A stretch of DNA of 64,000 nt from Lytechinus pictus (taxonomy: Eukaryota): assembly GCF_037042905.1 (NCBI RefSeq), contig NC_087251.1, positions 15,254,001 through 15,318,000 on the forward strand. The letters are read 5' to 3'. Below are positions 270 to 59,339 of this stretch, piece by piece. A model generated the notes under the pieces. The model saw only the letters and a program-made list of their open reading frames with translations, searched no databases and was not told the origin of the DNA. The position numbers and the translations under genes are program-made. The first letter of the stretch is position 1, and each line of letters opens with the position of its first letter.

Positions 270-345
270 ATATTTCTGGTCCTTTGCGGATAGGTTACTA
301 CAAATTGCTGCATGCCCTTCATCTCCAAACCCATTTCAGTGCTAG
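270..345 (+). CDS. RyR: RyR exon ([18 protein letters not shown])
   Basis: ttcttag/gtaag; matches RyR GPLRxGyY motif. Confidence 0.9.
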
Positions 346-2064: not shown

Positions 2065-2161
<97 letters not shown>

Positions 2162-8100: not shown

Positions 8101-11100
8101 TGCGTTTCAAGGAAAAATACCTGCCAGGTACCCATTTACCTCACCTGGGTTGAGTGCAGCACATTGTGGATCAATTTCTTGCTGAAGGAAACTACACCAT
8201 GGCTGGGATTTGAACCCATGACCCTCAGTTTCAAAGTCCGGAGACTAATCCACTGGGCCACGATGCTCCTCATCTGTAGAGTCATAGAGACATCCGCAAG
8301 AAGAATATTGTTTTATTTCCCTACATATTATATCATATTTTCTTGCATGTATTTGAAGGAAAATGATTTCCAAACATTTATGCACTCTGTATACGTATTT
8401 TCAGCTGGGAAGTTGATGTAGATTCAATCAATAGCAATTGAACTCCCCATGAAATGAAATAAAAAGGAGAGAATTCCTTTTCCATACATTTGTTCTCTCT
8501 TTCTATTTGATCACATCTAGGGCCCATAGAAGAGAGTTGCATAATTTTGATTCTGATTGGTTGAAAATCAAGTTACGATTCAATTTTGAAGTTGCATTTG
8601 ATTGTTATTCTTTGTGCACCAGGTTCCTGGAATATAGATAAAGATTCATGTAGTTTTATGCAGTGTTATTCTGCTACATGTACATGTATGATGCATGACC
8701 TTTACAGAAGGAAAAAAAAACTATCCCTTTCATCATCTCTTTTTCTCTTGTCTTGTCTTGTCTTAGACTCCCTTTCCCATCTAATCTCCAACACAATGAT
8801 CAAATGGGCTGAAGAGAAGCATATTGAGGACCCTACCTTGGTGAGAGAGATGTTCAATCTATTACATCGTCAGTATGATGGAGTAGGAGAGGTAAGAATA
8901 TTCACTTCTTTCATGAGATCGATTATGATATATTGTTGGGACACTTTTTTTCACATTGCCAAGGAATTCTTGGACAAACTTACTATTCCCTGGTACACTT
9001 TAGTAGGAGGTGGATTGACACTAATGTGCTCTGGAATATGATTTTCTAAAGTAATTTTAAGTCTACCTAAAAAAAAAATCAAAGTGTTTGAAAAAAAAAT
9101 CTATTTAAAGCTAACGTAATTGTGTTATTAAACTATTGGGTATCAGAAAGTAAAAGTAGATTTTATTTCATATAATAGTCTAACTTCAATTTCAAGTTCA
9201 GTTAAAATTCCAAATCATCTTTCAGTTACCTTTATGTTTCATGAATTGAAACAAATATTAAATTCATGCATTGTAACAACGACTGAATAAGATATCAATG
9301 TCAGTATTTCTTGATGTTGTTGACTTGATTGTTTGCAAAAGCTGTCATTGATAAAGTGATATTTCCAGTCACTCAGAGCTCAGCTAGTATAATTGTTACT
9401 AATTGTATCTCCTTACAGCTTTGCCGTGCCTTGCAGAAATCTTACGTCGTAAGCAGCAATCAGTGTGATGACATCGTTCACCTCTTGACCTCGCTAGGTC
9501 AGATCAGGTCATTGCTGACCGTTCAGATGGGATCAGTAGAAGAGGAAGCACTCATTAAACATCTCTGGTAAGTTAAATGAAGGACTTGGTCTGTCTTATT
9601 GAAGTTTTGCGTGATGAAGTACATTATTTTGAAAGCAATCTGAACAAAGTGTATCTTATTAATACAAACATACATGGAGCCTCAGCCCAAAGATCTGTAA
9701 ATTCTAGAAATTGTTGTATTTCAAATCAAGACTTCATAGCTTGCTTAACTATTGGTCATGTCTTTGTGGTGGGGATAAAATATTTAGATAAGTCTAATGT
9801 AAAAAAATATTTGAAGACATACTAAAATTATTAATTGTATCTTTATTGCAACACTTCTTTCATTTATTTTTTTATTTGAAGACTTTCTCAAGTGTGTTTG
9901 AGTCAGTAGGTAAACTTGAATTTGGTGCAGTACAATTTCTTTCATAATTGTATCCACATCATTTCAAGATGATTTTTCATGATGTTATCATATAGGGAGT
10001 TGACGGACAACAAGGTATTCTACCAGCATCCAGACCTTATGAGGGCTTTGTGTGTCCACGAGACTGTCATGAATGTGATGGTCAATGTTCTTGAGAAGCA
10101 TCAGACGTCCATCCAACTTACCAGTGATCAGGAGGCCGAGTCCGCTGCCCAGAGCCAGGGAGGGGCTGCAGCAAGCACAGCAGCCACACCCAAATCACAG
10201 GTAAGGAATGAAATGTGTAGATCAGAGCTGGTTGCTCATCAAGGTGGGGTGTCTTTAAGCCCTGTAATGATACAATCAATCTTAAAGTCATCACGCTTAG
10301 TTCCGTTGAGGCCATCGTATTAATGTTACGATTGATGATAAGTGTATCTTTTGTGTGTTACAGGGATTTTCAATGGTGCTTTGCTGGAAAGACAAATATT
10401 ATTCAGTGGTCCTGTGGCCCCACGTGTCAAACTCTTTAATGTGGATGGTCTATGGGTATGGAAGGGGTGTGTGAATCATAGACTCTCTTTGGATGTTTAA
10501 GTTGGCTATTACTTTATCATGCATTTCATATCTCTGCATTGAACGGTGTTCCTTACGAAATTATTCATGTTTATTTGAGCATGCTAGTAGAGCAGAATTA
10601 TTTCCTTAAGATAAGCAAAATTTAAAAGAATAATTAAGTCTTCCATCATATTTTTTAATTTTGTTTTTCAGGTTGAAACTAAACAAACTATTAAAAAATA
10701 TATCTGAATACCTAAAATGTACTCATGGCATCTGGATGTAAGTCTGTGTATGTACTAGGGTTTTTGGAATATCAGCTTGTCTGATTATAAAATTAATTGT
10801 ATTTATACAATGTAGTTCTTTTCTTGGTCTCAGATTTGTTTTAAAGCTCTTATTTGGGTTAATAAAATTTAACAATATGTTTGTTTTGGGGTCTCCAGTA
10901 ATTTCATTCTGCTTCGGTTGCATTGAATAAACAACAAGTTTTGAAATAATATCCTCAAAAGTCAAACCCATCTATTGCTGATATTCCCCTCCCCCTCCCC
11001 CAAATGAAACCCCCTTCCCTGACAGGAATCTGATTTCAACCGTGAGCTAATCACCGCCTGCTCGCGCTTCCTCAGCTACTTTTGCCGTGTCAGCCGTCGA

Positions 11101-14100
11101 AACCAGATGGCCAGTTTCGATCACATCACTTACTTTTTAGAGCAGAGCGACATTGGACTTTGTAAGTGCTTGCAAAGATCGGAATGACAATGGAAATTTA
11201 CCATAAACAAACTCAAATTGCCTTGCAAGAGTTCACCGCTAACAAGAAATGGACTGTTCCGATCAGTTGTCTTGCCTGCAGACTGTGAGGGCGTCCTAAT
11301 TTTATATTTTGTGGTTGTTTTTTTTTTCACCCCTCACACTTGATGCATGCCTGGGTTGAATTCATATCAAAACTCACTGCATCATATTAATTGAACACAC
11401 TAATCATAGAAAATAGATTGCATTGGTAACTCAGATTTTTTGTTTATGTATAGTTATGTAGCCATTTGTAACAATAACATTTACACATTAATACCATAAG
11501 TAGTGGATAGGAATCTTAAAATTCTTAGATATTATTCTTTGTATTAATATAAATTGAAAGTATCAAATCGGTAAATTTTTAACAATAAAACTTTGCCTGA
11601 ACATCTTCATATTACATTATACACTTATTCATTTGTCATTTTCTAAATTGTTACCAAATTACCTTTGACACATAGTAATCAATTCTTGTAATTTAAACCA
11701 TTGCACAATATACACGCTGGAGTATTTTTTTAAGGATTTGTATTCAGTTAGGTCATGACAAATTATCTTGATGATTTGTTATAATAAATGTAAAATTTTA
11801 TTCTGACCATTTATTAATTAGTTTAATAGGGCTAATGAGTCAATTCTGAATTTTTCTTTCAAATCAAGTATCCGTACATCCATATTCTTTTCATTTATTT
11901 TCATTTGTTTGACAGGTACTCTATTTGATACATGTATATGAATTTCAATACTATAATCTTCCTTTGAAATTGATTTGATTATGCACAATAATGATAATTC
12001 AAAGATGGTGTAAAGTTTTGAGGAAGTGTCAATCCTCATTCAAATATGATGCAGCAGAGCTCAGCAATGTTTTTTGTACTGTTCAGATAAGGTAAGACAA
12101 GTCACACCAATTATTAATGCACTGTATATGCTTCAAGTCTTTAAGAAATAGTCCAAAATTGCACAAGAAAAGCCATGACATTATAATGGTTCTTCTTGGT
12201 ATCATGACCTAAAAATTATTTCATTATTTCACCATCAGTCATGTTGAAGGATGTCGGTGTTTTTACTCATGAGTATGCAACTTTGGACATATTTCACAAT
12301 TCAATAGCGCTTAACTTCAGAAGAATTTGATCGATCCCTAGTTGCTTGTTACATTGGAACAAAATAAATGACTCCTTTCCAACATATTTTTAAGGCTTCA
12401 GTGACTTTGTACACAGAAACTTTGCTTAGCTCTTTTGTGACATGTTTGAATGAGCCTATACACAGGCCAAACTTCCTATTCCGACTTACATTGGTTTGAT
12501 ACAGGTATATGGGTTGATGATATTTTGGGTTGTCAGCATGCTTAGTTTTTTATTGACATAGTTAATAGAATAAATGGAGAGAATGAACATTGCTGTGGTT
12601 TATGTTTATATAGAGTGATCTACATATGAAGCATGTTAGGATGAGAGTGTTAATGTGTTAATCCATTTTGTCATTCAACTATGCACAAATTTCATGAATA
12701 TGAGTATCAAATTAAAGTAATTGTTAACAATTCTAATCCTCCTTAAAAAAGTACATCTTCAAAATTTATATAAACAAGTCTCCATTAGGTGCTCTTTAAC
12801 GTTATAATATGAAAAGAGATACATTTTACGAGCTTCTTTTTAAGACTTGTATTCTCAAATGGATACAATGATAGGAAAGATAAAGAGAAATAGCCGATTA
12901 TCATATTCACTGAATGTATGTATTTGTCGGGTTTGGTTTTCCTCTTATCACCATCTAATATTGCAGGCATTCACCTTTGCAATGTTTGATCAATTTCACA
13001 TCCTACAAACCATGCATTTTCACCAAGTAAAGGTGAAAGCAAGCTCATGGGGAGTGTTTCATCAACCTTTTTGGCTGACAAGTCAGATCTGACAACATTC
13101 CTGATTTTGATTGGCTGAGAAGCACTGTTACAATGGTAACTGTCGGATATAACAGGACTAGTCAGACAAGTGTTTGACAAGTCCTTTTAAGAAATGTTCC
13201 CCTGATCACATTGCAGCATTACAAAGGTGAATGCACTGTGACCTATGGTGACCTTTAACCTCACACCTCCTACCCTTCTACCCATGTTTTTTTTTATTAA
13301 CCCTTTGAAGCAGATGTGCGTTTACAGGTTCCTGGCCCGCCAGGCCCGGATGTGCCGTTCCGAGGACAGGTTTGCCCGTGAGCTCATCGCCAGCTGCTGC
13401 CGATTCCTCTGCTACTTCTGCCGCACCAGCCGGCAGAATCAGAGGGCGCTGTTTGATAAACTCCTCTACCTCCTTGATCACGGCTTCATAGGGCTGTGTG
13501 AGTAGACAAATGATTCTCATCATTGTCTTGAAGGTTCTGATGATGCCGACTCTCTTCTGTATTTAAGTCAATAAGCAGTGTATTCTCTGGCAACAATTGC
13601 CCTTTGGATAATGGGTCCCCAATATATGAAAATTTCTCAATATGGCAGATTCTTCAATGATGAAAGTCACTTAAAAATATATGATCGGCATAATGCTGAT
13701 CATAAAAATAGACAGTCAATACTATGAACCTTTGCAAGCAAGTGTATATTATTTGCTATGTCCATTACACAACTTGCTGAACTATAGTTGAGTTTCCATT
13801 TGATATTTCAAACATTGTCATTAATTTGTGTGTAAAGAAATAGTATGAAGCCTGTGAAAATTCAACTTGATTCTTGTAAATAATGTTGAAGATAAATATA
13901 ATAGTGATAATTATGATGAAAGGATCATTCTTGTTCAGCACATCACAAAATTAAAATTGTTGAATCATGCACAAATTGAATTCAACCCTTACATGTACTT
14001 GGCATGGTGTGCAGATGTATTTTTCCCAAAATGAAATAATGCTTGTTAATTTTACCAATGGTTTTTTTTTCACCATGGGAAGGAGAGCTCTATGTTTCAT

Positions 14101-17100
14101 GTAACTTTTATTTTTTGGAGAGAGCAATTGTTGCCAGAGCATACTTTTGCTCAGTATATGAATCTAAATGTATGTCTGCATATTGAAGGTGCATTAAAGC
14201 TGCATTAATAGTGCATTCAATTTTTACCAATAACAGGTCAGAACAATTTCAAATGGAGTAAGTGCATCATCATATTATGAAACCAAAGTATGATTTGAAC
14301 CTAAGAATGAAAAACCAACATGGAAAGGAATACCGAATGTATATTACAGCATTATTTCTCTTTGATAATCATATCATATTTTTAATTTGAATAACTTATC
14401 AATTTCGTTCCATGTCTTGGTGAATTGTTGCATTTGCTTTTAGTTTTTGTTTTGCACTTTAATTTGGAATGGATTTTATTGTTTGCTGAATTATACATGT
14501 AGAGCATGATTTTTAGCACAATTCTAGAGCATGGTTTGCATTTACTCAATTATTTCATTGATTGTATTTAAATGTCTCTAATGTACTAATGAATTGATCT
14601 TAACAAGTGATACAGTAGACCTCTTTCAATTTTGAAAGGGCAATGTCCAAAATAAAATCTTTTTAAATGTTTATAAGATATCACACAAAACTGTGATTTA
14701 ATCTTTTAGTGTAGTAATGGATTAATTCAGACCATGTTCGTAATTGAATCTGTTTAATGCATATGAATAGTGTGTCTATCAAATGTAACTATGAAATGAC
14801 AAATTTTATCTATGTATGCAGTACAGCTTGAAAAAAAAACCAACCATTTTCAGCCCATTAAAAACCAATATTGAAGATCTTTTCAAATGCATATAAAATA
14901 CACATTATGTTGTTTATTTGATTGATGAATGTGAAATCCAAAGCACAAACAATGAAAGCAACTATTTAACAATTCTAAGAACAATATCATTGAATTTCCC
15001 AAGAATAAAATACAATGTTAGGTTTGTTGAGAGGTGTGTTTTCTGTAAATTTCATTCATAATGATGTAGGAAGTTAAGACAAATTTTTAGTGCCAGCTTA
15101 CTTTTTTTTATTTGATCCTAATTTAAATCAATGAACCTATAGCTTACCCATCATTACGAGGTTCCTGCCCCTTGGATGTAGCTGCTGCCTCCCTGATGGA
15201 CAACAATGAACTAGCCCTCGCACTCAGGGAACAGCACCTGGAGAAAGTCATCACCTTCTTGTCTAGGTGCGGGGTGCAGGACAACGCCCGTCTGAGGGCC
15301 ATGGGGAAACCCCTCACTGGATGGGACCCTCTAGATGGAGAGCGGTATCTGGATTTCATGAGGCATGCTGTGTGGGTCAATGGTAAGAGAGGATGGAGTC
15401 GTCAAATGAAGAGGCGGAAGTGGAGAGGTGGGATAGGTTAATCCATCGATTACTAAAATTTCTTGATATACAACCTTTTCTGCTTTCAACCTGTTAAAAC
15501 TATTAAAGAAAATTTAATATGAAATTGAAATGAGTCAAAATTGGAGATTCTATATTTTTATTTTATTATATTTTAATTATTAATGTTTGAAAAAATGTTC
15601 AATATATATATATATATATAAATATAAATAGTAAAAGGTTAGAGAAAATGGAAATAGGTGTAATTTCCATTTTATGATTCCTATGACAGGAGAGACTGTT
15701 GAAGAGAATGCTAACCTGATAGTGAGACTGCTGATCAGACATCCTGAGTGCCTTGGCCCAGCCTTGAGAGGGGAAGGAAAGGGCCTCCTAGCAGCCATGG
15801 AGGAGGCTATTGATCTCTCAGAGACAGCAGAGGAAGGGTATCTCATCTCTGCCCCTACCATGGCAATCAGTGAAGAGGATGGAGAGAGTAGACCCATTGA
15901 TGGGTGAGTAGGGGCATTGGTGATTTAAATGATTGCAGGAGTCAAGAAGTAGGATATTGAAGACTTATTAATGGATATAAGTTGAGCAACTATACACTGC
16001 TAAAGAAAGAAAAAAAAAGAGTTAAATTGATAATCACTTCTGACTTTTTGGTGGCAGCAGTGGGATTAAGGAACGAGGCTCACGTTTAGAGGTTTCTATA
16101 ACGCATTGAGCCTTGTGTATGTCTCAGCTCAAATGTAATACTTCATGTACTCAATTAATTTCTATGTGTTTCAGTTAATTCTGCAAATGGATGGGTATAA
16201 TATTTCAGTTGTCATATTCATAGTCTACAGTACATCAGGACCTACAAATATTGATCTTTCTGTGAATTTTCAACCCTGCTGTTTCTATTCCAGTCAAGAT
16301 GATGAAGGTGATGAGGACGAGGATGATGTGGACACTGGTGGAGCCATCCTGACCTTCTATGCAACCCTGATAGATCTCCTGGGCCGTTGCGCCCCTGATG
16401 AGAACCGCCTCTCACAGGGCAGAACTGAACCCCAGAGGATCAGGGCCATCCTGCAGAGTCTGGTCCCTCTGGATGATCTGGTTGGGGTGCTCAACCTCAA
16501 GTTTGTCCTGCCTTCTCCTCAGAAGATTTATGAGAAGAAAGATGGTAAGAACAGAGTGACTTCTAGATAGCTGAGAATGGGTCAAGTCATTTACAACTGA
16601 ATTCTCTAGATCTCCTAGGCTTTGTGTAAAGGACTTCCTGTTCTTATATACACAGGTTTGATTGTAAATTGAAATATTGAGAACATAGTGCAAATTGATT
16701 GGGTGAAGGTTGCCATGTGTGATTCAATAACCGTTTTTTGTTGAAAGTGTATCATGTGATGATAATCAGTGATCCTCCCATTTTGTTCATAAATTGTCTG
16801 TATACCAGTACCAGTGTAAAGTACTGGTCTCAACGTGAGAACACATGTAGGTCTAACTAGATAAGACACAATTCTTTGAATGGGTCCTCCATTGTGTACA
16901 AACAATATAGCTCTTGAAATGGTATTGTATCTAACCTGGTTGGATCCACAGCTGCATTATGGTATACTGTACATTGGTAATAGTGGATAGCATTTAACAC
17001 TCATGAATGGATGGCATCATAGAGAATCTGTGATCCACTGACTCGTTTCCCATTCTTCCCCTCAGATGGAGCTGGTAAACCATTGGGTGCTGATCTGAAG

Positions 17101-25203: not shown

Positions 25204-25234
<31 letters not shown>

Positions 25235-46200: not shown

Positions 46201-49200
46201 ATTTCACAGGTAACAAAGTGTGCTATCAATAATGTCCATGTTGGTTTTATTTTCACTGATGTCACTTGTCCAACCTTACTGAAATTTCCTCTTCTTTATA
46301 TTGTAAATGCTGCCCAGAAAAAAATTACATCTTGTGTATATGCTAAATGAGATCTTTTTTAATTGTACAAATATTGGCTTATACCAGTAAAGTATAAATT
46401 AAGAGCATGTTAGAGTCCTTTTCATGACAATCCAACTCATTTGTTTAGAGATAGGGTAATATCTCTGGCTCAAATCTATCATCACCATGAAAAATTACAA
46501 CAAAAATATTAAATCCAGACATGCCCAGCCTCTAGTCTGATGCATGAGATTTACACACCAGGGACTCTTGCTTGTCGTCACTATATATCTGTCTCATACC
46601 TACAAGTGCAGTACTCCATTCCTTCATACATCATACACAACAATTGGTGATCCCAAGTCAAGATAGTGTGCAGACTAAAATATTGTGTATTATCTGTCTT
46701 TGTGACTACTTATTTTTGTGATTCTGTGTAATTTTAAAGCATTTTCTCTTTTCTCTGCAGAAAGAGACAGACAAGGAAGTGCGTGACTACCTACTCCAGC
46801 AGCTGCATATTCAAGAGAAAGAGAAGGTGGAGGAAACGGCCCGGCTGACAGCCCGTAGTCATGCCCAAGCCTATTTATCACGAAAACCATCCGTATCTTT
46901 CTCATCATCACCACCCTCATCATCATCTTCTGCTTCAGCTCCTGCACTCGCATCTTCTTCTGCTACCAGCACCACTACCAGCACCTCTTCCTCTCCTCCT
47001 CCTTCCTCTTCTTCCTCCTCCTCCCCATCCTCAGTAGCTCCTCAAGAGTCTCCCCAGCCGGCCCACATTAGAACCCGGAGGCAGTCCATAGCCGCCTGGC
47101 AGTCTGCTGCTTCTCGTGTCACTGCTGCTCGCATAACTGCAAGTGTCTTGGGTTTTTCTCTTCCCTTCGTTTCGCTTTTATATTGCTTCAAGTTCCCTAC
47201 CCACTTTCAAGATTTCAATTTGCCCTTGTATAAACGAGCATATGTATCAGCCATAATTTTTACAAAATCCAATCATAGATTTATAAAGTTAGGTCAGTTT
47301 ACCTCTGAATAAACCTTGACCATGATTGAAGAATCCAATGACAGATTTCATTTCCACAAAGAATTCTTAGTTAAGTTTTAGTAAAAAAAAAAAGAAATCA
47401 TGGTGATATGATGAAATGGATAGCAATACAATACAGAGGACTGTAGATTTTAGTAGAAATCAGGATTGTTAACATGTCATGGATATTTTTCATAAAATTT
47501 TAAAACATGGTGCAATTTTCTCATTTAAATAAAAAATACAAATACATAATTCAAAATTCATAATGCTGGCAACATAGTATTTTGATAGGTTTTATAAAAG
47601 ACAAGAATTGAAATTTTTATGTAGGTCTTATTCCTTTGTTTTTTTTACATAATTTTGATGATTTTTAAATGCTGTTTATTATTTTCTTTGTACGGCCTCC
47701 ACTAAAAAATTCATGTGACTTCCAAATGTAAGTCTTTTCCATTTGTCATTATACATTTTTATGACATGAAAATAACAACTAACAAGAGATATCTGTCCAG
47801 TACATATTTTTCCCTTTCCATGCCATATTCCGACCCCTTCATAGAATTATACCATCTGCAATAAAAATGTCCTTGCAATATATATCCTTCATTAAATAAA
47901 CTCTTAATTGTAGTACCTTATAGTAATTGTAGCACCTAAGAATGTTGCCCTTTCTTACAGTATAGGTATACTCTAGCATTAGAGATTCTGTTTTCCTCTT
48001 TTATTTTCATGAAGGGGATGGTGGTATGAAAGATAAAAAATGATATTTGAAAACAATCTTTTTTTTCTTCCTTGGGGGTTGAAAATGCATCTTACATGTA
48101 TATTCAACTGTATGATAAAAAATAATCTTAAATTATAAAAAAAATCAGCTAAAAGAAATGGCTGAAATATATTAGAAACGAAGGGCCATTTTTTTCTCCA
48201 AACCTCATTCATTTGTTACAACAGTTAACAATGTGTTCCCAGATATGAAATGCCAAAAGCCTATTATTGATAGCCCGGCTGGAAACAAAATGCAGGAGGA
48301 ATTACTGAAAATTGATGAGGTTGGAGGAGTGCATGTTGTATTTGATGCTGTGCTGTGGAATTCTTAGTATATTGTTGCTGTTTCCATGTACATTTATTTG
48401 CACAGCCTGTTCACCATGCACTGCTCATCCATCTATCTTCTCTTGAAATGCTGTTAATACCATTCTTAAAAACAAAATTAGTTCTCTTTGAGAGAGAAGG
48501 GAGAAGAAATAATTTCTTCGTATTGAAAAAAAAAATGGGGTTCCTAAAAACAAAATTGATTGTTCTTTCCTTGAGGGAGGGAGAGGGAATAATTTTTTCT
48601 GATTTATAAGATGATTTGGATTCTCAATATCAAAATTAATTGTTCTCTTATTAGAGAGGGGAGAGTGATCATATCTTATTAAAAGAATAATGGGATTCTT
48701 AAAAATGAATTGGAATAAATTAGAAGAGGAAAAAAATATCGATAGATTAAGAAAAAGAGCATAATCATTTAAAGCATAGTTTAATCAAGTTATTAATTAT
48801 ATTTGTTAATAGAATGATTATTTGAATGCATCATATGTGTATTAAATAATGAAGTTTCTGCTTGATTTAACTCTATCAGTTACATGTTTTTAGCTAGACA
48901 TTCCTCTTTTATCCCTGTTCATTGTTTTTTTTTTCTTTACTGCTTTTTAAAATAAGGACCTATTCCCTTAATTTTTCTGAAGATAACCCCATTACCAAAA
49001 TGGTTACTTTATGAAATACAGAGCCTACATAAAACCAAACAAAAAGTCATTACATTAACACACCTTTTTTGTTTTATTCCATATTTTTAAGGTGAAAGGT
49101 CTTCAGAAATCTTTTTTAAGAGAAAAAAATATTGTAATGTTACATCTATATAAGGATTGATGATTATAGCATGACCATTGTGTAACAAATGTAAAGAGCT

Positions 49201-52200
49201 ATAGGAAGCCAAAATTTCTACATATGAAGACCATGCTCATATTGAAATTCTACGTATCCTGATTTTTCATATTTTCTTTTCATACTCTCATACTCTATAA
49301 TACCTTCCAAACTATAGAATGCCCAGTAAAGTTTACCAATATTCATTGTGCATTTGTATTTCTTGTGCTGTGTTTCTATGGGGGTTGTCTAGAGTCATGT
49401 ACAGACAGTGTATGGCCATTATGGTTTCAATTTGCATACAATATGGGTATGTTCTTTACATGTATGCTGCTTCTCTTCCCAAATAACATCTTGTAATATT
49501 GTGTCCAACTTGTGGTTCGGCCATATTCTCTCAATTATGGGCTCCGGTCCTTCCCCTTTAGAAGTGCCCTCATTATTTCTTGGGAAAATGGTAACCCCTA
49601 GTCTTTCCTGTTGATAATATATGTAGTGCGTCCGTGAATGATGAACATTTCCCTTTCATTTCTCTTGAAAAGATCAAGATCATATTTACCTTTGTAATCC
49701 CTTTTAATTTTCTTTTCTCATGAACTTTTGATGATTTAAAATCTCAGTAGTGATATAAAAAAATGTAAGAAACTCCTTAACTTTCCTATATTCTATTTTC
49801 ACCTCTTTTCTGCCCTGTAAATTTCTAAGATATACATGTACATATATATCAATAACTATGCATATTTACTTGTAAATACTAATGTATAGACTTATGGTAA
49901 TATTAATGATCACTTGGCTTCGCCTTTCACAAAATATGGCATATCAATGTATTCTCACATTTATTAACAAAGCTATATTAAGGTCTGAGATTATTATTCA
50001 TTGCAAATTTTAGTAAATGCATATTCTAACTTGCTGCTCTAATCATTCCATTTATTTTCTTTCTTCATAAATTACATGACGGAATATCATATACTCCATG
50101 GCTCATTGATTTATTTGTCTTCAATAAATTTATAAATATTCATCTAACTCTCTTTATATATGAAATATAAAATTTGTGATTGAATTGATTAGATTTCAAA
50201 TTGTAAAGGATTCATACCAGCTTGGAAAAAAAAATGTAATCAAAAGAGGTTAGATTTTGCTTGCTTCATTAGTGGACTTGGCCACATGAATTAATGTTGA
50301 CAATTATCCTCACATAATTTTAGCCCAATCTTATCATGACTAGCATAAGATAACATGAAATGGTTCATAGGATTACATGTAATGTATTATTCATGTTATC
50401 GTTTATGTGGTCTTGACTCCGAAGTGTAATTTCATGTATCTAACGTTCAGCTCGATTTAAGTGTCAGTGACACAACGGCCATTTGTTATAGAAAGCATGA
50501 TCTGAATAAATTCAAATAATGGAAATCCAGCAAAACCATGATATATACATGTATGATATATTTATTAAAAAGTTTTATGCATATTGCTCTGAAGGGATGT
50601 CAAATGGTTGTCTATCACCCATCCTGATATTTGTTTACAAATCTTGGTGTGGCTGGCTTTCCATAGTTGATTGTGATTAATCACAATAAGCAAGGACATT
50701 TCTTTATTAGTATTGGCCTGGGGTTTGAGTGAAGATAATGATCACTGAAGTGTCACCTGGGCCCCCATTTCATTAAAAGTTGGTACAGAATGATAGCAAC
50801 TAATGCTAGAATGTACACTTCCATGACAACAGTGAAAATTCTGATTCCTGATTGGCTCAGGGTTCCAAGCCCATCAGGGAAATCAGGGAAAATTATTTTA
50901 CTTTCTTCCAGTCAGGGAAAAATTAGGGAATTTGATTTTTAAAAATACCTCAAATCAGGGAAAAATCAGGGAATTTTGATCAGCCCAAAAGTCGAGAGCA
51001 CGGTAGACAGTCAGACTCTGTTATATTTTGTTGTAATCAAAACAACATCCATTGAATGACTGGTTATGGTGGTACTAATTAATTTTACATTATTGTTTTT
51101 AATTAATTTTACATTGTTTTTATACTGAAAATACATGTAGTTCACTGCAACAACTTAGAAAACATGCGAAACTGGGAATGTGTTTAAGTAATTATCAGGG
51201 AATTTTGTTTTCTTGAAAAGCTGGAAACCCAGTGGCTCATCCAATATGAAAGATTGGATCCTAAACTGAAAGTTGACATTCCAGTAAGAGTTGCTATCAC
51301 AGCAACTTTTTTATGAAATGGGACCCTGGATGAAATCCTTGCATCTGATTGGCTCAGAGCAAATTTGTCAGTTAAAATCTCTGATAAAATTCTTCATGAA
51401 ACACTCCCCTGGTCTAAGAACCTTGGTTCTTCATAACTAATTTTGATGAGGATCAACTAAATGAACCAAGTGCTGAAGATTGAATCCTTATTTGTTTTAT
51501 TTTGCTTATGATTTTGGTCTTAACAGCAAACAGACTCTAAAGGATGGCAGCGTCATCTATACAACAAGATGGCTGCCAGTAAGCTGGTTCAGGTGGTTGA
51601 ACTTACCAAGGATAAGGTGATTGAACGCATCATCAACATGGCCCAAGTCCTCCATCGACTTCATCAGGTAGGTGAAACTTTCACTTGATCTTGCTTTTCT
51701 TACATTGTACCAGCAATTGCGATAGAAAATTAGTGTATGTTGGTCAGATGATAAGAGAATGATTGCAGAAGATCTAGTAGAGACCATGGTAGAGGGTAAA
51801 TGGGGAAAGGGGTAGACAGTTTAACACTAAGTTCGATGATGTCAAGAAATGTGCAGGCCTTAGTTATTATGTGGTTAAAAAAAGGGTTTGTGAAAAAAGG
51901 CAATAGAAGTGCAGTCGCCAACCACCTTGCTAGGGACAGAATCATATGTATATATGTATGGATGGTGATGATGATGGTGATGATGGTGATGGTGGTGATG
52001 GTGGTGGTGGTGGTGGTGGTGGTGGTGGTGGTGGTGGTGGTGGTGGTGATGATGGTGGTGGTGGTGGTGGTGATGGTGATGATGGTGATGATGATGATGG
52101 TGGTGGTGGTGGTGGTGGTGGTGGTGGTGGTGGTGGTGGTGGTGGTGGTGGTGGTGGTGGTGGTGATGATGATGGTGATGGTGATGGTGATGGTGATGGT

Positions 52201-54588
52201 GATGATGGGGGTGGTGGTGGTGATGACAGTGAGGGATATGATGATGATAGTTAATGATGAATTTTATTCTTTTTGCTATGATAGATGGAGCACCCATCGG
52301 TGTCTAAGAAGAGTGCATGGAGAAGGCTGATGTCTGCTCAGCGTAAGAGAGCTATCATGGCCTGCTTCAGAATGATACCACTCCACCATCTACCAAGGTA
52401 TTGTACCTAACAAATTCAGTGATGGCTGATTTACAGTAGATACTTTTTTCAAACAATCCCTTTTTCAAATTGCAAAAAAAAAAAGTATTTTTTATTATTA
52501 TCTTGAAATTTTCTGAGAAAAAAAAATTCTTGAAATTTTTATATCATTTTACCCTGGTTTTAAAAGAAAAATCTTTCAATTATTACTTTTTTATTTCTGT
52601 TCCAGACATCGGGCAATTAACTATTTCCTCAAGGCTTATAAAGAGAAATGGCTGAGCAATGAAGAGTCAGCCCAACATCTCTTGATTGATGATTTAACTG
52701 TAAGTATACTTTATCCTCAATTCATTTGTTGACTCATATATTATTGTTTCTTTCTTTTTCTTTTTTTTGAAAATACTTTTGTTTAATTAGATCGCTGTAT
52801 CATTAGTATTAACTTTGACTTTGCCATGAGAGATAAAATATGGACATTTGTTTCATTGTATGTCATGATGTCATATGTCATTTTATATTAGTAAAATATA
52901 TAAAAAAGTTGGATGCAGTAGATGCATCCTTTTGAATAATAATAAAACAATGTTATGGTACTGTATAACAGTAATAATGACATGCACATATGTATGTATA
53001 CAAGTAACGCAATATCTTAGATAATGGTAGCATTAGAATTTGGACCCCTTGGTTTCAAAAGAAAAGGAGAACAACTTTTTTTATATAAACTTATGTGGTT
53101 GTTGGAGTTTCTATTATTGGTCAATAAATTAATTGTATTTTCAAAGGGTAGAACAAATTTTACTACTTTAAACATGCGTTATTGGAATTAAAGTGAAATG
53201 ACTGTTCTGAATAAACAGATTAATATTGTAGTTCAATCAAAGTTGATTCATATTTTAATTGTTGCATTTGATCTATCAAACAGAAATGCAGTTCTGAAGA
53301 GCTGCAGGAGTTTGAGCCAGAGAATGTGAAAGATCCCCTCTATCAACTAATCTTGACCTTCAGTCGAGCCTTTGGACTTCAACAGGAGTAAGTGACACAT
53401 TCTAATATATCCAAACCGATGATTATTGAATTCTGGGGGTGTTTCACCAAGAATTAAGTATGATTTAAAGTCGTACTTAAATGTCCTTTTGCATGCTGAA
53501 TTAAAGGCATCATCACATTGGTCAAATCATGCTAAAATGACGCGCGCTACTGCGTATTAATCTATAAGATTGCGCGTTAAATAATCGTGTGCGCATCAGC
53601 ATTTCAAGTCATGCGTAACTCTATGTGAAATACCCCCTAATGTAATTTGTTAATATAATTGTTATTATGTAACTTTCATTTTTTTATAATAGATGTGAGG
53701 GAAAAGGTTAATACTATACATTGTAATCATAATTTAAAATTTTTAGAGAATTTTGACAGTTGACTTTGAACAGTAATTCTGTTAATTTGAAGTACATTTT
53801 AGGCATCTTCCTCTATCCCAGTATATTAATGAAAACACCTCAAAGGCATTTTGTTGATCATACGTACATTTTGAATGCAAATTTTAATTCAATTTGAATA
53901 TTTATCATTTTCTTTACTATGGCTCATTAACTATGCATAAATACAATCTCCGTTCTATTGGCCATGGAGCTACCCGGCGTAATGCATTAGCTATAGATGG
54001 GAACGAGTCTGTTGTTAGTTAGGTATCTATTACAAAAGATTCTAATTGATTTTCATTTCCATTTGTGTTTTTATACCAGTATGTTAGATGAAGATTTCCT
54101 GTATCAGTCCTATGCTGACATCATGAGCAAAAGCTGTAGCGGAGGAGAGGATGATGACGATGATGATGAAGAAGGAGAAGAGAATGGGACATCCTTCCAG
54201 GTATCATAAAGTTTCCCTAGGAGTGTAGTGATTAAATTAAGGAATATGGGAAGTCACCTTTCAAAAAACCTCTCTTAAGTAAAGACTTCATTAAGAGATT
54301 TCACTCTTTATATCAATCATTAAATCAATCTCTCATAAAGGAAGTAAATAAGATTAACTCAATCGCTGAATGTCCAGTCATTGATTTATTGAAAAGAGAG
54401 CAGGGACTACAAGTAATATTTTTTTATGGTGATATAATTGTCACTGGATCATTTATTGAATACTGTTTTTCAATTTTTTCCCATTTAGGAGCAAGAGATG
54501 GAGAAACAGAAGCTGTTGTCAGAGCAGGCTAGGCTGGCTGAGAGAGGGTGTGCAGAGATGGTGCTTCTTCTTATAAGTGCAAGCAAAG
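270..54588 (+). CDS. RyR: Ryanodine receptor, internal multi-exon portion (gene extends beyond both window ends)
   Basis: 48 GT-AG exon positions join in frame (phases checked by hand). They encode RyR motifs: [87 protein letters not shown]. Confidence 0.97.
906..1496. mobile_element. TTAA-flanked MITE (Kolobok/piggyBac-like non-autonomous element)
   Basis: TTAA|AGGCCAAGTCCACCCC ... GGGGTGGACTTGTCCT|TTAA, with long imperfect subterminal inverted repeats. Confidence 0.85.
1600..1761 (+). CDS. RyR: RyR exon ([11 protein letters not shown]...SIRPQL)
   Basis: cag/gtaag, phase 2-2, open frame. Confidence 0.9.
1990..2210. repeat. Compound (GTA)n/(GCA)n/(GGA)n microsatellite
   Basis: Directly visible; explains the poly-V/A and poly-L ORFs. 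Confidence 0.95.
2388..2555 (+). CDS. RyR: RyR exon (…[14 protein letters not shown])
   Basis: RDPIGG motif; cagtag (NAGNAG) acceptor, gtaag donor. Confidence 0.92.
2917..2954 (+). CDS. RyR: RyR exon ([12 protein letters not shown])
   Basis: ttacag/gtaagt, phase 2-1. Confidence 0.9.
3212..3289 (+). CDS. RyR: RyR exon ([20 protein letters not shown])
   Basis: tacag/gtatg, phase 1-1. Confidence 0.9.
3322..3435. mobile_element. Tiny hAT-like MITE (about 114 bp hairpin)
   Basis: TIR CAGTGGTGGACCGTGACCC / GGGTCACGGTACGCCACTG; flanks tgtatcta / tgtattta (7 of 8 match, putative 8-bp TSD). Confidence 0.7.
3842..3999 (+). CDS. RyR: RyR exon ([13 protein letters not shown]…[10 protein letters not shown])
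   Basis: RyR motif; cag/gtgag. Confidence 0.95.
4542..4640 (+). CDS. RyR: RyR exon ([15 protein letters not shown])
   Basis: TREFRSPPQEQ-like motif; cag/gtaat. Confidence 0.95.
5070..7042. mobile_element. TTAA-flanked non-autonomous DNA transposon with an internal palindrome of about 1.6 kb
   Basis: TTAA|AGGAGAAATATATTGA … TCAATATATTTCTACT|TTAA; 5259-~6050 is the reverse complement of ~6070-6850. Confidence 0.85.
7291..7531 (+). CDS. RyR: RyR exon (MRMLLNFK…[10 protein letters not shown])
   Basis: ctag/gtaag; MLLNFK…CP…FH..L..HCG motif. Confidence 0.93.
8010..8269 (-). mobile_element. tRNA-derived SINE
   Basis: Minus strand begins GGAGCATCGTGGCCCAGTGG (A box) … GGTTCAAATCCC (B box). Related fragments at 30147-30333 (-) and 40685-40825 (+). 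Confidence 0.75.
8767..8891 (+). CDS. RyR: RyR exon ([12 protein letters not shown]…[11 protein letters not shown])
   Basis: LLHRQYDG motif; ttag/gtaag. Confidence 0.95.
9419..9567 (+). CDS. RyR: RyR exon ([13 protein letters not shown])
   Basis: Conserved motif; cag/gtaag. Confidence 0.95.
9996..10200 (+). CDS. RyR: RyR exon ([28 protein letters not shown])
   Basis: Conserved motif; tag/gtaag. Confidence 0.96.
11026..11161 (+). CDS. RyR: RyR alternative exon A ([45 protein letters not shown])
   Basis: gacag/gtaagt, phase 0-1; paralogous to exon B. Confidence 0.88.
13314..13497 (+). CDS. RyR: RyR alternative exon B (…[42 protein letters not shown])
   Basis: gtgagt donor, phase 0-1; acceptor uncertain (13314 or 13344, both phase 0). 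Confidence 0.88.
15143..15382 (+). CDS. RyR: RyR exon ([23 protein letters not shown])
   Basis: Conserved motif; tag/gtaag. Confidence 0.96.
15690..15903 (+). CDS. RyR: RyR exon ([26 protein letters not shown])
   Basis: Conserved motif; cag/gtgag. Confidence 0.96.
16294..16544 (+). CDS. RyR: RyR exon ([18 protein letters not shown])
   Basis: Conserved motif; cag/gtaag. Confidence 0.96.
17066..17238 (+). CDS. RyR: RyR exon ([15 protein letters not shown]…GFLPDLRAA)
   Basis: Conserved motif; cag/gtaag. Confidence 0.95.
17611..17831 (+). CDS. RyR: RyR exon ([17 protein letters not shown])
   Basis: Conserved motif; cag/gtttg. Confidence 0.95.
18011..18896 (+). mobile_element. Helentron-associated (HINE/DINE-1/pearl-like) non-autonomous element with internal ~180-bp tandem repeats
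   Basis: 5' T-run and GTCTCGCCTGCA, (GGC)n tract, about 4 tandem cores containing GGTCACATGACCAAGGTCAAAGGTCA, 3' TGCAGGCGAGAC…CACTTGTT; second copy at 30450-30951. Confidence 0.75.
19239..19329 (+). CDS. RyR: RyR exon ([18 protein letters not shown])
   Basis: cag/gtgag; conserved motif. Confidence 0.94.
19757..19897 (+). CDS. RyR: RyR exon (HYERCVTYY…GLFDALAEK)
   Basis: HYERC motif; cag/gtatg. Confidence 0.95.
20468..20631 (+). CDS. RyR: RyR exon ([16 protein letters not shown])
   Basis: Conserved motif; cag/gtaag. Confidence 0.95.
21041..21119 (+). CDS. RyR: RyR exon, RyR repeat 3 ([10 protein letters not shown])
   Basis: AExxHDxW motif; cag/gtagg. Confidence 0.94.
21482..21571 (+). CDS. 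RyR: RyR exon, RyR repeat 3 (NGWTHGE…LRPYKTL)
   Basis: GWxxG…LRPY motif; cag/gtagg. Confidence 0.93.
21825..22202. mobile_element. MITE with 5-bp TSD (copy 1)
   Basis: CCATT|CAGGGTTCCCAGC…GCTGGGAACCCTG|CCATT; internal TCAGGGAA repeats. Confidence 0.85.
22596..22733 (+). CDS. RyR: RyR exon, phosphorylation loop (…[11 protein letters not shown])
   Basis: [25 protein letters not shown]; tag/gtaag. Confidence 0.95.
23371..23448 (+). CDS. RyR: RyR exon ([19 protein letters not shown])
   Basis: Conserved motif; cag/gtaag. Confidence 0.95.
24260..24335 (+). CDS. RyR: RyR exon, repeat 4 ([16 protein letters not shown])
   Basis: Conserved motif; cag/gtcag. Confidence 0.95.
25047..25170 (+). CDS. 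RyR: RyR exon, repeat 4 ([15 protein letters not shown]…[10 protein letters not shown])
   Basis: Conserved motif; cag/gtatg. Confidence 0.95.
25200..25295. repeat. (GAT)n/(GGT)n microsatellite
   Basis: Directly visible. Confidence 0.9.
25640..25663 (+). CDS. RyR: Candidate 24-nt RyR microexon (SEEEEAKKR)
   Basis: aacag/gtaat, phase 2-2, purine-rich, no stop. Confidence 0.55.
26822..26845 (+). CDS. RyR: Candidate 24-nt RyR microexon (RNAFISRAK)
   Basis: U-rich tract, gacag/gtaagt, phase 2-2, no stop. Confidence 0.55.
27058..27203 (+). CDS. RyR: RyR exon ([20 protein letters not shown])
   Basis: IEKRFA motif; cag/gtggg. Confidence 0.92.
27707..27765 (+). CDS. RyR: RyR exon (…GYKFFAK)
   Basis: KFFAK motif; cag/gtatt; phase 1-0. 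Confidence 0.9.
28176..28300 (+). CDS. RyR: RyR exon ([13 protein letters not shown]…STREKELVS)
   Basis: Conserved motif; cag/gtaat. Confidence 0.94.
29941..29994 (+). CDS. RyR: Candidate alternative RyR exon ([18 protein letters not shown])
   Basis: ctaac branch point, tatag/gtgag, phase 2-2; resembles RyR ASxxEKEMxxS. Confidence 0.7.
30450..30951 (+). mobile_element. HINE/DINE-1-like element, second shorter copy
   Basis: Same termini and core repeat as 18011-18896. Confidence 0.75.
32707..32756 (+). CDS. RyR: RyR exon ([16 protein letters not shown])
   Basis: SLFCKLA motif; cag/gtgag. Confidence 0.94.
33361..33421 (+). CDS. RyR: RyR exon ([12 protein letters not shown])
   Basis: gcag/gtatg; phase 1-2. 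Confidence 0.9.
35443..35466 (+). CDS. RyR: Candidate 24-nt RyR microexon (RVSHSDGRS)
   Basis: Pyrimidine tract, catag/gtacc, phase 2-2, no stop. Confidence 0.4.
37369..37613 (+). CDS. RyR: RyR exon ([17 protein letters not shown]…[16 protein letters not shown])
   Basis: Conserved motif; ttag/gtaag. Confidence 0.94.
38077..38158 (+). CDS. RyR: RyR exon ([18 protein letters not shown])
   Basis: QVxCYRIL motif; cag/gtaag. Confidence 0.94.
38985..39011 (+). CDS. RyR: Candidate 27-nt RyR microexon ([10 protein letters not shown])
   Basis: tatag/gtaaa, phase 2-2, purine-rich, no stop. Confidence 0.5.
40932..41074 (+). CDS. RyR: RyR exon ([23 protein letters not shown])
   Basis: PVAFLEP motif; alternative in-phase donor after 41068. 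Confidence 0.94.
42386..42521 (+). CDS. RyR: RyR exon ([20 protein letters not shown])
   Basis: PHxIEVxLPMLC motif; cag/gtaat. Confidence 0.95.
42987..43040 (+). CDS. RyR: RyR exon ([12 protein letters not shown])
   Basis: YLxxWWxxGP motif; cag/gtgag. Confidence 0.93.
43430..43545 (+). CDS. RyR: RyR exon ([24 protein letters not shown])
   Basis: Conserved motif; ttag/gtaag. Confidence 0.94.
43748..43926 (+). CDS. RyR: RyR exon (AQPIL…[13 protein letters not shown])
   Basis: Conserved motif; cag/gtcag. Confidence 0.93.
44403..44473 (+). CDS. RyR: RyR exon ([16 protein letters not shown])
   Basis: Conserved motif; cag/gtaca. Confidence 0.95.
44937..45024 (+). CDS. RyR: RyR exon ([17 protein letters not shown])
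   Basis: ctag/gtaag; phase 2-0. Confidence 0.92.
45201..45503 (+). CDS. RyR: RyR exon ([10 protein letters not shown]…[16 protein letters not shown])
   Basis: Conserved motifs at both ends; cag/gtgag. Confidence 0.95.
46761..46826 (+). CDS. RyR: RyR exon ([22 protein letters not shown]); weak donor, frame stays open to 47312
   Basis: Matches the KDTDEEVREFL-type motif; AAG/gtggag donor. Confidence 0.85.
48225..48319 (+). CDS. RyR: Candidate RyR alternative exon ([31 protein letters not shown])
   Basis: Pyrimidine tract, aacag/gttgg; phase 1-0 complements the phase-1 donor after 47292. Confidence 0.4.
50858..51232. mobile_element. MITE with 5-bp TSD (copy 2), nested in an older CWG-flanked MITE (~50757-51329)
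   Basis: TGGCT|CAGGGTTCCAAGC…GCTGGAAACCCAG|TGGCT; highly similar to 21825-22202. Confidence 0.85.
51527..51667 (+). CDS. RyR: RyR exon (WQRHLYNK…[17 protein letters not shown])
   Basis: WQxxLY motif; cag/gtagg. Confidence 0.93.
51958..52250. repeat. (GGT)n/(GAT)n microsatellite
   Basis: Directly visible; explains the poly-V, poly-H and poly-G ORFs. Confidence 0.95.
52285..52397 (+). CDS. RyR: RyR exon, calmodulin-binding helix ([27 protein letters not shown])
   Basis: Matches vertebrate KKAVWHKLLSKQRxRAVVACFRM. Confidence 0.96.
52606..52699 (+). CDS. RyR: RyR exon ([16 protein letters not shown]…LIDDL)
   Basis: Conserved motif; cag/gtaag. Confidence 0.95.
53284..53387 (+). CDS. RyR: RyR exon ([13 protein letters not shown])
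   Basis: DPLxQLxxxFSR motif; cag/gtaag. Confidence 0.94.
54080..54200 (+). CDS. RyR: RyR exon ([18 protein letters not shown])
   Basis: YADIMxKSC motif; cag/gtatc. Confidence 0.95.
54489..54588 (+). CDS. RyR: RyR exon ([24 protein letters not shown])
   Basis: Conserved motif; ttag/gtact; last constitutive exon seen. Confidence 0.95.
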
Positions 54589-55708
54589 GTACTGTGTTCC
54601 CCCACCCCTCATCCTCCTCCATTCCCTCTTCTCCTTCCTCCTCTCCCTCCTTCCTTCTCTATATATACATCTGTCACCTTTTCTGTCTGTTTGTATCTAC
54701 CTATCTTTCTTTCTTTCATTCTTGTTCACTTTATCATTTACTATCTTGTCTCCCATAGTTCTTTCAGTTCCTTCTCATTCTCTCTCACACTCATTCATCT
54801 TTCACCCTTTTTCTTCTCCATGCTCTAAAAATGTCTCTATTATCCCTTATACCTCATCTTCCCTTTTATTTATACCTACACATTTCTTTATATCTTCAAA
54901 TCCTCCCAAAGCATGTGACATCATGATGGTTTTACAATGTTTTCTTACACTGTTATTGGTGCCTGTGCTTGTATTGTGATGCTTTCATTGTTATACGTTT
55001 AGAAGTAGATATTAGGCACTCTTGTTGAATAGCTTAAGTTTTTATGTTAATGAATGCTGCAGACTTTCGAAGTAAACCAACTAGTCAATTAAGAAAATTG
55101 TGCGGATGATTATGTATTTGTTCAAGTCTTCACTACATATGCTGTTTGCTATTATTTTAACATATTAAGTTTAGTAATTATAATGTAAAGGATGATACAT
55201 ATAATCGCTAGAGGGTATTCATTTGTCTCGCAATCTACTATGGTCAACAAGGAAATTCGTGATCACTCTCGCAAAAAGTGTTCACTGGCTTTCTAGGAAA
55301 TTCGTGATCACTCTCGCAAAAAGTGTTCACTAGCTTACAAGTTCACGAGCTTTCGAGTGCCACTGCAACTCTTTATCAAGTGACGAAAATTATCTGATAA
55401 CGTACTCTATTTATACTAATCTCCAGGACCGTACGCACGAACGCGAGAACAATAGGTGGGCATTGATCCGTTGCGTCGGTATGCGGTGCGGCCGGTAATC
55501 CGTATATGCAAATAAGCCGGGGGTATATGCAAATACGCCGTGGGTCGGCGATATGCAAATTAGACAAAATTGGCGGGCTCGCTAGTTTCCCGTGGGCGGG
55601 GGCTGACTAGCTGAGCGGTCCCTCGTTCGGGGCCGGGAACGATCGTAACTACCGATCATAACTCACCCACCTGAACTCCCGAAAGAAAGAGCACACATAC
55701 GTGGCGCC

Positions 55709-56548
55709 TTGTACAGCAACGGCTACCCACGCCGTTTTATCAAGAACACTTTCAAGAAAAAACTACCACCAAGGGATCAGAAGGTTTTCAAGACTTACAC
55801 AGTCTTGCCATACATAGATGGCCTCTCACAACAACTTAAACGCCGATTAGAAGGTCACGGTATCCGAACGGTTTTCCGCTCGGACACCACCTTACACAAA
55901 CAGCTTGTACACCCCAAAGACCCTATCCCTGATCACAGACGTGATGGCGTAGTATACAACATTCCTTGCCAGGGATGTGACGGGTCTTACATCGGAGAAA
56001 CAGCCCGACCGATAGTTGAACGCATTTCTGAACACAAGCGCGATGTTCGGTTACAGCGAACCGACACATCCGCGGTGGCAGAACATGCTTGGGAGAAACA
56101 ACACCACCCAGATTGGGAGGGTGTACATTGCATTGCCAAAGAGAGACATTGGTATACACGCAGGATTAAGGAGGCTATTAGTATACGTCTTTGTCCTAAC
56201 AACTTCAACAGAGACAGCGGGATCGACATCCCCGACTTCTGGATGCGAACCATCAGACAGCACAATACCCCCTTGCCTGGCAGTGCACGCCGACCCGATC
56301 GTTCCCGGCCCCGAACGAGGGACCGCTCAGCTAGTCAGCTAGCGAGCCCGCCAATTTTGTCTAATTTGCATATCGCCGACCCACGGCGTATTTGCATATA
56401 CCCCCGGCTTATTTGCATATACAGATTACCGGCCGCACCGCATACCGACGCAACGGATCAATGCCCACCTATTGTTCTCGCGTTCGTGCGTACGGTCCTG
56501 GAGATTACTATAAATAGAGTACGTTATCAGATAATTTTCGTCACTTGA
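55709..56548 (+). pseudogene. C-terminal fragment of Penelope-like ORF (RT thumb/linker plus GIY-YIG endonuclease)
   Basis: NGYP…LPY…GVVYNIPCQGCDGSYIGET.R…R..EH…EAISI…NRDSG; RT core missing. Confidence 0.88.
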
Positions 56549-56581
56549 TAAAGAGTTGCAGCGGCACTCGAAAGCTCGTGA
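56541..56581 (+). ncRNA. Minimal type-I hammerhead ribozyme variant in pseudo-LTR (antisense copy at 55343-55383)
   Basis: TCAC TTGATAAA GAGTTGC-AGCG-GCACTC GAAA GC TC GTGA. Confidence 0.6.
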
Positions 56582-57521
56582 ACTTGTAAGCTAGTGAACA
56601 CTTTTTGCGAGAGTGATCACGAATTTCCTAGAAAGCCAGTGAACACTTTTTGCGAGAGTGATCACAAATTTCCTTGTTGACCATAGTAGATTGCGAGACA
56701 AATGAATACCCTCTAGCGATTATTTCAATCCGCAATAATGAACCTATTTAGTATGATACATATAGTCTGCCTGTATAGATTACACTATATTCGGTTCACA
56801 TAAAATCTATCGATATCTAATTTGTTTTCAATGATACAGAAAAGTGGATAAAGAAAGAAACTTTCAATGATAATTTGAAATTCTTAATCTTCCAGTGATA
56901 TTTTTCAAATGAATATCTATTTTTTTAAATATATATAATGTTTTATACAAGTTGTTGTTTGTAATGTCTTGATGCACATCTCATTTAACTATGCATCTTC
57001 TTGCATTTGCTAATTCCCTTGCATTTATTTGTTTGCATAGAAATGCATTGGAAATGTATTTGCACTTTTGATAAATGCATATTTATTGAATTATTGGCAT
57101 AATAGAACAACAACAAAAAACACCCCCCCCCCAAAAAAAAAAAAAAAAATAATAATGATAATAATAACAATAAAAATAAATGAATAAAAAAAATAAATAA
57201 ATGAATAAAAACAGAGCTGAATAATTTTGGAACCACTCATTTGCAAACAATACCCCATCTAATTACTTTTCTGTTTATGTCTTCTTTTTATGGTTTCAAA
57301 TTTATATTTGCAAAAGACATTTTTTTCACATGTAAATGCTGCTACTATGGCTCCCAGCATGGCTTTTATCAAGTAAAATAAGGATGAAGTATAAGATTTT
57401 ACTTTGAATCCTCACTTTGAATGTATGATAATGTCTTGTATATACATGTATGAGATGTATGCTTAAATAGATTAGTTGAAATGAAAACCCCCTTTTGCAT
57501 CTCTAATCTCTGTAACTGCAG

Positions 57522-57542
57522 ACAGAACCCGCTATTCCTATG
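57522..57542 (+). CDS. RyR: Candidate 21-nt RyR microexon (DRTRYSY)
   Basis: ctaat branch point, ctgcag/gtaagt, phase 1-1 matching the upstream exon, no stop. Confidence 0.6.
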
Positions 57543-59262: not shown

Positions 59263-59339
59263 GTCCGGCAGCCCAGGAGGTTTATTCAACCGAAAGCCGG
59301 ACAAGCAAATGACCCCATAGCTGGATGGCATGGACCCTG

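Follow-up and report, generated by a model that had tools for sequence, protein, structure and literature searches.

Probable alternative splicing of a single sea urchin ryanodine receptor gene at several sites in the bridging-solenoid region

This study concerns a 64,000-nucleotide stretch of the genome of the sea urchin Lytechinus pictus (contig NC_087251.1, positions 15,254,001 to 15,318,000; hereafter the window), which contains the middle part of a ryanodine receptor (RyR) gene. We consider it probable, at roughly 0.7, that this single gene undergoes alternative splicing at several points of the bridging-solenoid region, and that a swap between two tandem exons, termed A and B, would retune channel gating. 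Exon B is well supported as the main version of the tandem-duplicated pair. Sequence comparison likewise gives good support to the placement of two microexons (m1 and m4) and a serine-rich extension at splice sites that are also variable in crinoids. Microexon m2 is well supported by RNA bin depth as an added exon relative to crinoids, skipping not being among the observations.

The 45 exons between 2917 and 54588 join into a single open frame without a stop, and their peptides match PDB chains of RyR1, RyR2 and RyR3; PDB searches gave no match for exon A (1e-11), exon 40933-41073 (1e-8) or exon 28176-28298 (1e-3). Two exon queries and Pfam PF06459 match nowhere else in the 812-Mb genome, which supports the single RyR gene assumed in an earlier, sequence-only reading of this DNA. 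That reading had also proposed at least eight frame-preserving splicing candidates, all placed in the cytosolic shell. All eight were located and each keeps the frame of the 45-exon chain, with AG/GT borders at every candidate except the serine-rich extension, which probably ends at a GC donor (Table 1). The placement had to be corrected for microexon m5, which falls in the core solenoid, after the equivalent of human RyR2 3748, by the domain borders that we assume. We take this part of the gene to span the junctional and bridging solenoids, Repeat34, CaMBD2 and the start of the core solenoid. No further duplicated RyR exons were found in the introns of the window beyond those named here.

Table 1. 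Elements of the RyR gene in the window (window coordinates; nt, nucleotides)
Element	Position	Strand	Description	Basis
RyR gene, middle part	270..64000	+	extends past both window edges	flanking exons
Exon A	11026..11161	+	136 nt, phase 0 to 1; duplicated in tandem with B	sequence homology with B
Exon B	13314..13497	+	184 nt, phase 0 to 1; carries the canonical Cys motif	RNA contigs and PDB alignment
Microexon m1	25640..25663	+	24 nt, phase 2; encodes an acidic insert of 8 residues directly behind Repeat34	crinoid match, RNA depth
Microexon m2	26822..26845	+	24 nt, phase 2; same intron as m1	RNA depth
Removable tail	28259..28300	+	42-nt tail of exon 28176-28300, removable via internal phase-2 donor after 28258	donor scores
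Duplicated half-exon	29941..29994	+	54 nt; candidate replacement for the 42-nt tail	in-frame similarity
Candidate microexon m3	35443..35466	+	24 nt, phase 2	in frame; ranks within chance
Microexon m4	38985..39011	+	27 nt, phase 2, before RPAIGE helix	crinoid and snail models, codon-aware rank 1 of 194
Serine/threonine-rich 3' extension	46827..47138	+	about 104 residues, on exon 46761-46826; alternative donor	Antedon and Diadema models; 3' end inferred
Candidate microexon m5	57522..57542	+	21 nt, phase 1, in 16-kb intron	splice score

The tandem exon pair

Exons A and B are adjacent, homologous and of equal phases, and each is in frame when used singly. They are identical at 23 of 39 residues, with 12, 8 and 19 differences at codon positions 1, 2 and 3, and both are intact. 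Relative to the canonical motif, A shows two Cys-to-Ser changes, and the N-terminal part of B is 16 residues longer than that of A. The use of both exons leads to a stop after 67 codons and the use of neither to a stop after 12, so that nonsense-mediated decay, and not a steric block, probably ensures exclusivity.

RNA evidence was drawn from four of nine listed runs, two available as contig sets (runs X1 and X3) and two as raw reads sampled at about 6% (runs X7 and X9). The usable data were the listed contig pieces and the bin depths, and the depth of a bin was predicted as letters times contig depth. Predicted and observed values agreed within about 0.05 in six clean bins (5.663/5.66, 3.81/3.81, 12.65/12.6, 7.46/7.45, 4.43/4.42 and 4.21/4.21), and, although none of the runs was annotated as RNA, spliced contigs demonstrate RNA in runs X1 and X3. 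B was the form present in all four runs: contig record 9 of run X3 (depth 35.3) joins 13311-13497 directly to 15143 and continues through the following exons, record 1 of run X1 contains 13314-13497, and the bin holding the tail of B has a sense depth of 0.26 in run X7 and 0.92 in run X9. The A bin is at 0 in run X3 and at sense depths of 0 and 0.03 in runs X7 and X9, against 0.83 and 1.1 for the bin of the exon upstream of A. In run X1 the A bin reaches 0.45. In record 1 of that run B is preceded by 72 letters, the bin of the upstream exon is at 0, and the depth of 0.45 equals 72 x 4.2/667, in a region that is unique in the genome. As the depth fits 72 letters of A, this low-depth contig suggests that A was joined to B, a combination that shifts the frame.

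With regard to homologues, B aligns with rabbit RyR1 2224-2265 and human RyR2 2191-2229, and a protein atlas search with B gave no match above 0.82. A metagenome scan with exon 15145-15381 yielded 32 non-urchin loci, 20 of which hold an exon of the A/B type in single copy, on contigs that are often short; the same kind of scan with exon 37370-37612 found no relative. Crinoid RyRs carry the two serines of A, yet their exon is about equally similar to A (21-22 of 39 residues) and to B (22-23 of 39), and the crinoid isoform models show no variation at this site.

According to PMC7864917, the N-lobe of apo-calmodulin is in contact with RyR1 2190-2242 and is able to cause channel opening through bending of the bridging solenoid. 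The overlap of A/B with this interface comprises RyR1 2224-2242. A and B may represent alternative versions of helices that include the contact, and a swap would alter the contact surface together with two cysteines, thereby retuning calmodulin or redox control of gating. A possible further calmodulin contact, RyR2 Tyr2202/2203, found no support in the literature searched and was not used. Sea urchin eggs are a classic system for calcium release through RyR that depends on cyclic ADP-ribose and calmodulin, and two natural variants of the surface bound by the calmodulin N-lobe, exchanged by splicing, would offer a direct test of how this contact sets gating.

The scarcity of A in the RNA bears on a narrower reading, in which only some of the sites are regulated: B would be effectively constitutive, A a poison exon or a decaying duplicate, m2 constitutive, and m3, m5 and the half-exon unused look-alikes. 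As a poison exon, A included together with B would lower RyR output through decay, and the sole RNA trace of A is indeed the inferred A+B join in run X1, A being absent from the contigs of run X3 and close to zero in runs X7 and X9. The splice-site scores of m3, m2 and the half-exon also lie within the chance range. Nevertheless, A is intact in its coding frame with an excess of changes at third positions, crinoid RyRs use an A-like serine motif, and the RNA sampling consists of four samples, two of them at about 6% of the reads. We regard this narrower reading as unlikely, but it is the rival that survives best.

Sites shared with crinoids and the case of m2

Crinoids were chosen for comparison because homologue searches yielded no full-length sea urchin RyR isoforms; the sea urchin sequences retrieved were a 314-residue piece from Diadema antillarum and short fragments. 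The Diadema piece is 82% identical to the chain encoded in the window, compared with 48% to the crinoid. The RyR of the crinoid Antedon mediterranea is represented by nine RefSeq isoform models (X1-X9) and that of the snail Gigantopelta by five. The Antedon models differ at six sites, three of which correspond to m1, m4 and the serine-rich extension; of the others, one lies upstream of the window and one downstream, and the third is a shift by 1 residue. The Gigantopelta models also differ at six sites, including those of m1 and m4.

At the m1 site, Antedon has an optional segment of the same length, 8 residues directly after the NGYRLQ motif, which is absent in one of the nine models, and Gigantopelta has an optional piece of 14 residues. 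In run X3 the m1 bin was observed at 1.84, compared with 1.74 predicted for inclusion. The same bin is at 0 in run X7 and 0.04 in run X9, where the bin of a nearby 59-nt exon reaches 1.18 and 0.75, which suggests that m1 is skipped there. The run X3 bin containing exon 27058-27203 has a depth of 12.4, which fits 171 letters, that is m2 plus the next exon (12.41), and not 145-147 letters (10.5-10.7). Neither the m1 bin nor the m2 bin contains close repeats. Crinoids have no counterpart of m2 and no insert at the sites of m2, m3 or m5. Both m1 and m2 presumably lie after the end of Repeat34, given the identity that we assume for PDB entry 6j6o. Between them, the intronic bin 26099-26765 shows an unexplained depth of 1.9 in run X3, equivalent to a piece of about 26 letters of the same contig.

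The spacer in front of the RPAIGE helix measures 19 residues with m4 and 10 without it. Antedon has a 9-residue option at this site, skipped in three of nine models, and Gigantopelta an alternative segment. Spacers of 18-19 residues are found in an insect, a tick, most flatworms, the snail and the long crinoid form, and spacers of 10 residues in the three vertebrate sequences shown, the short crinoid form and one Paragonimus model. Judging from these sequence models, the inclusion or skipping of m4 would give the loop either its protostome or its vertebrate length.

The serine-rich extension is placed one 47-residue exon before the CaMBD2 exon (RyR1 3610-3645). Antedon has an optional serine-rich segment of 28 residues at the same donor, absent in two of nine models, and a Diadema model reads through at this site into a tail rich in serine and threonine. 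The 3' end of the extension was inferred from a phase-0 GC donor at 47138 and is uncertain; it could instead lie at a phase-1 donor at 47142 and be followed by a further exon (48225-48319 or 49562-49590). The intron after the extension contains well-scoring open segments at 48225-48319 and 48015-48023, which may be further pieces or chance. At the neighbouring junction 45504-46760, Schistosoma models vary by 16 residues and those of Gigantopelta by 1, and no convincing cassette was found in the 1,257-nt intron. A 6.7-kb intron downstream of the window lies at an optional 7-residue site of Antedon and may hide another microexon; we believe it to be close to the ASII site of RyR1.

The microexons and the serine-rich piece would make surface loops longer or shorter and alter their charge, and possibly their phosphorylation sites, leaving the pore untouched. 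In its fullest form, the reading would have the exclusive pair swap part of the docking surface of the apo-calmodulin N-lobe, so that channels differ in calmodulin or redox control (for example, in egg and muscle), and three switches kept since crinoids and urchins split, m4 toggling between a loop of the ancestral protostome length and the short one fixed in vertebrates. We advance this combination only tentatively, as distinctly less probable than the splicing itself.

Chance, motifs and the less certain candidates

Several points weigh against alternative splicing at these sites. The isoforms compared for crinoid and snail come from computed RefSeq models and not from full-length cDNAs. The RNA alignment spans 10091-30090, so that m3, m4, m5 and the serine-rich extension fall outside it. 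For m1, m2 and A the RNA data come down to calculations from bin depths, the joint tables being filled by reads from repeats and transposons, and several other bins, some purely intronic, show unexplained extra depth, so that bin depth amounts to indirect support and not to a junction count. No A-only transcript was seen in the four runs, and an aligner that misses 24-nt pieces in raw reads may mimic the skipping of m1. The half-exon bin (8.73 in run X3, 7.28 in run X1) is not interpretable, and bin 28100-28766 contains a repeat. Neither RNA nor orthologs back m3, m5 or the half-exon. Finally, splice scores alone barely exceed those of shuffled introns and are near chance.

This last point was quantified with splice weight matrices trained on 44 constitutive exons. 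The introns hold 1236 frame-preserving AG-3n-GT sites, among which m5 ranks 1, m4 5, m1 14, m3 28, m2 46 and the half-exon 101 by splice score. For sites with acceptor >=2 and donor >=3 (a cut that m2 and the half-exon fail on the acceptor side), thresholds of 8/10/12/14 leave 29/16/7/2 real sites, compared with 18.5/10.9/5.0/1.8 in 20 dinucleotide shuffles; at >=10 this means 16 against 10.9+-3.8, and at >=14, 2 against 1.75. Equally scoring sites, which the sequence-only reading had proposed to look for in shuffled introns, are thus nearly as common there by splice score, but the picture changes with codon usage. The candidates m4, m5 and m1 then take ranks 1-3 of 194, with m3 at 6, the half-exon at 17 and m2 at 24, the last three within the chance range. 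A score >=16 is reached by 3 real sites versus 0.68+-0.86 shuffled ones (3 in 1 of 50 shuffles) and by 1 on the reverse strand, whereas at thresholds of 10-14 the reverse strand, with 15/8/5 sites, exceeds the real strand, with 11/3/3. Other high scorers (48015-48023, 14237-14257, 17400-17414 and the repeat-derived 18213, 18404 and 18566) were set aside as probable chance sites.

Among the less certain candidates, m5 is in frame with the next exon, downstream of the window, and is probably real; its splice-only score or a higher one recurs 0.48 times per shuffle. The half-exon matches the 42-nt tail in frame at 21 of 31 nt and has a donor score of 10.7 and an acceptor score of -5.0. The internal donor that would release the tail scores 9.1, compared with 8.2 for the normal donor, and its use was not observed. 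Isoform models of Antedon and Gigantopelta do not differ at this site, and the balance tilts slightly towards a real half-exon. For m3, where the homologues examined have no insert, the odds fall a little short of even.

The candidates had been noted to tend towards longer introns, several of them with TGCATG downstream, a sign of Rbfox-regulated exons when enriched there. The seven host introns measure 1,887-16,173 nt, compared with a median of 503 nt in the 37 others (Mann-Whitney p=2e-5), and still have a median of 1,682 nt when split at the cassettes (p=1.6e-4); the tendency is real but partly circular, because longer introns hold more chance sites. The longest intron without a named cassette, 4641-7290 (2,650 nt), contains only a weak 21-nt candidate at 6455-6475. 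TGCATG occurs within 250 nt downstream of four of the eight candidates (A, m1, the half-exon and m5) and of 5 of 44 constitutive exons (p=0.023). Against random positions in host introns (20%), however, the excess is not significant (p=0.057), and the motif is equally dense in host and other introns. The five microexons, of 21-27 nt and all multiples of 3, fall within the frame-preserving range of 3-27 nt used for neural microexons. The motif of neural microexons of the SRRM3/4 (eMIC) type, a UGC directly before the 3' splice site, was found at only one of the five (m5).

A stronger claim would be that all eight cassettes are real and combine independently under Rbfox control to reproduce tissue isoforms like those of RyR1, RyR2 and RyR3. 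Each testable pick (B, m1, m2, m4 and the serine-rich extension) did gain some support, and half of the candidates have the downstream motif. No such motif follows B, m2, m3 or m4, however, and PMC7644089 reports only 6 of 16 possible combinations in C. elegans and vertebrate paralogs about 65% identical overall, whereas the cassettes alter short loops. We judge the strong form very unlikely. The suggestion that splicing supplies the diversity of this single gene gains partial support, from the crinoid-variable m1, m4 and serine-rich sites, the spliced B and the depth-consistent m1 and m2; m3, m5 and the half-exon are candidates. That the small cassettes are all chance AG-3n-GT sites in long AT-rich introns, as the similar counts of mid-scoring sites in shuffled and reverse-strand introns might suggest, is hardly credible and largely refuted for m1, m2 and m4, since m1 and m4 match crinoid optional segments in position and length and the RNA depth fits m1 and m2.

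The introns also contain mobile elements. The m5 intron holds, at 55194-56730, an element in which inverted arms of 392 nt, 98% complementary to each other, enclose a frame of 299 codons (55649-56545); this frame has no Pfam match and, by eye, seems to us to resemble the GIY-YIG endonuclease end of a Penelope-like element. A fragment of a non-LTR (long terminal repeat) retrotransposon lies in the same intron on the minus strand (61527-60131; reverse transcriptase PF00078, E 2.6e-26). Interspersed repeats were found at 18010-18900, 21740-22210, 30460-30950, 50860-51230 and 13060-13170. Within the aligned stretch they reach very high depths in the RNA runs, the sense depth at 18095-18761 being near 2,000 in run X7.

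Comparison with known RyR systems

The general principle, several channel versions from one invertebrate RyR gene, is already established. The inference drawn in the sequence-only reading is not new, as PMC7644089 calls splicing diversification of a single invertebrate RyR long proposed and tests it in C. elegans. The likeness to unc-68 lies in a single RyR gene diversified by alternative exons, examined there by genome editing. In the worm, the hotspot is divergent region 2 (exons 10-13) together with alternative promoters, whereas the urchin sites, whose functional effects are predicted ones, are found in and past the bridging solenoid. Insect RyR genes likewise combine, in one gene, a tandem-duplicated exclusive pair with optional segments of 12-45 nt, regulated by stage and body part, according to PMC3989282, PMC3342285, PMC6026295 and PMC4519896. 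The insect pair a/b, however, belongs to SPRY2 (residues about 1135-1168), in contrast to the urchin pair at RyR1 2224-2265, and the optional exons described have other locations, such as the stretch between repeats 3 and 4.

Our search of the literature on sea urchin and echinoderm RyR splicing and on mutually exclusive RyR exons, which covered few subscription journals and no supplements, found no description of a duplicated exon at the bridging-solenoid site or of the sites shared with crinoids. The new details are the apparent overlap of A/B with the apo-calmodulin N-lobe interface and the putative loop-length switch of m4. In vertebrates, the ASI and ASII variants of RyR1 and the 24-nt and 30-nt variants of RyR2 are short in-frame inserts that modulate channel behaviour; their positions, by the coordinates we assume, differ from the eight of the urchin. 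An egg RyR cDNA of Hemicentrotus pulcherrimus, described by Shiwa et al. in 2002, reportedly carries four in-frame insertions, one of them a serine cluster, and is not known to include a mutually exclusive pair. The serine cluster is probably the extension found here.

Antedon offers a close parallel, since its models have optional segments of 8 and 9 residues where the urchin has m1 and m4, and an optional serine-rich piece at the site of the extension. The crinoid differs in showing no isoform variation at A/B, m2, the half-exon, m3 or m5, and its serine-rich piece is shorter (28 versus about 104 residues). The sites that urchin and crinoid share would indicate which bridging-solenoid loops accept inserts, and these loops may be tuning points that predate the vertebrate gene duplication.

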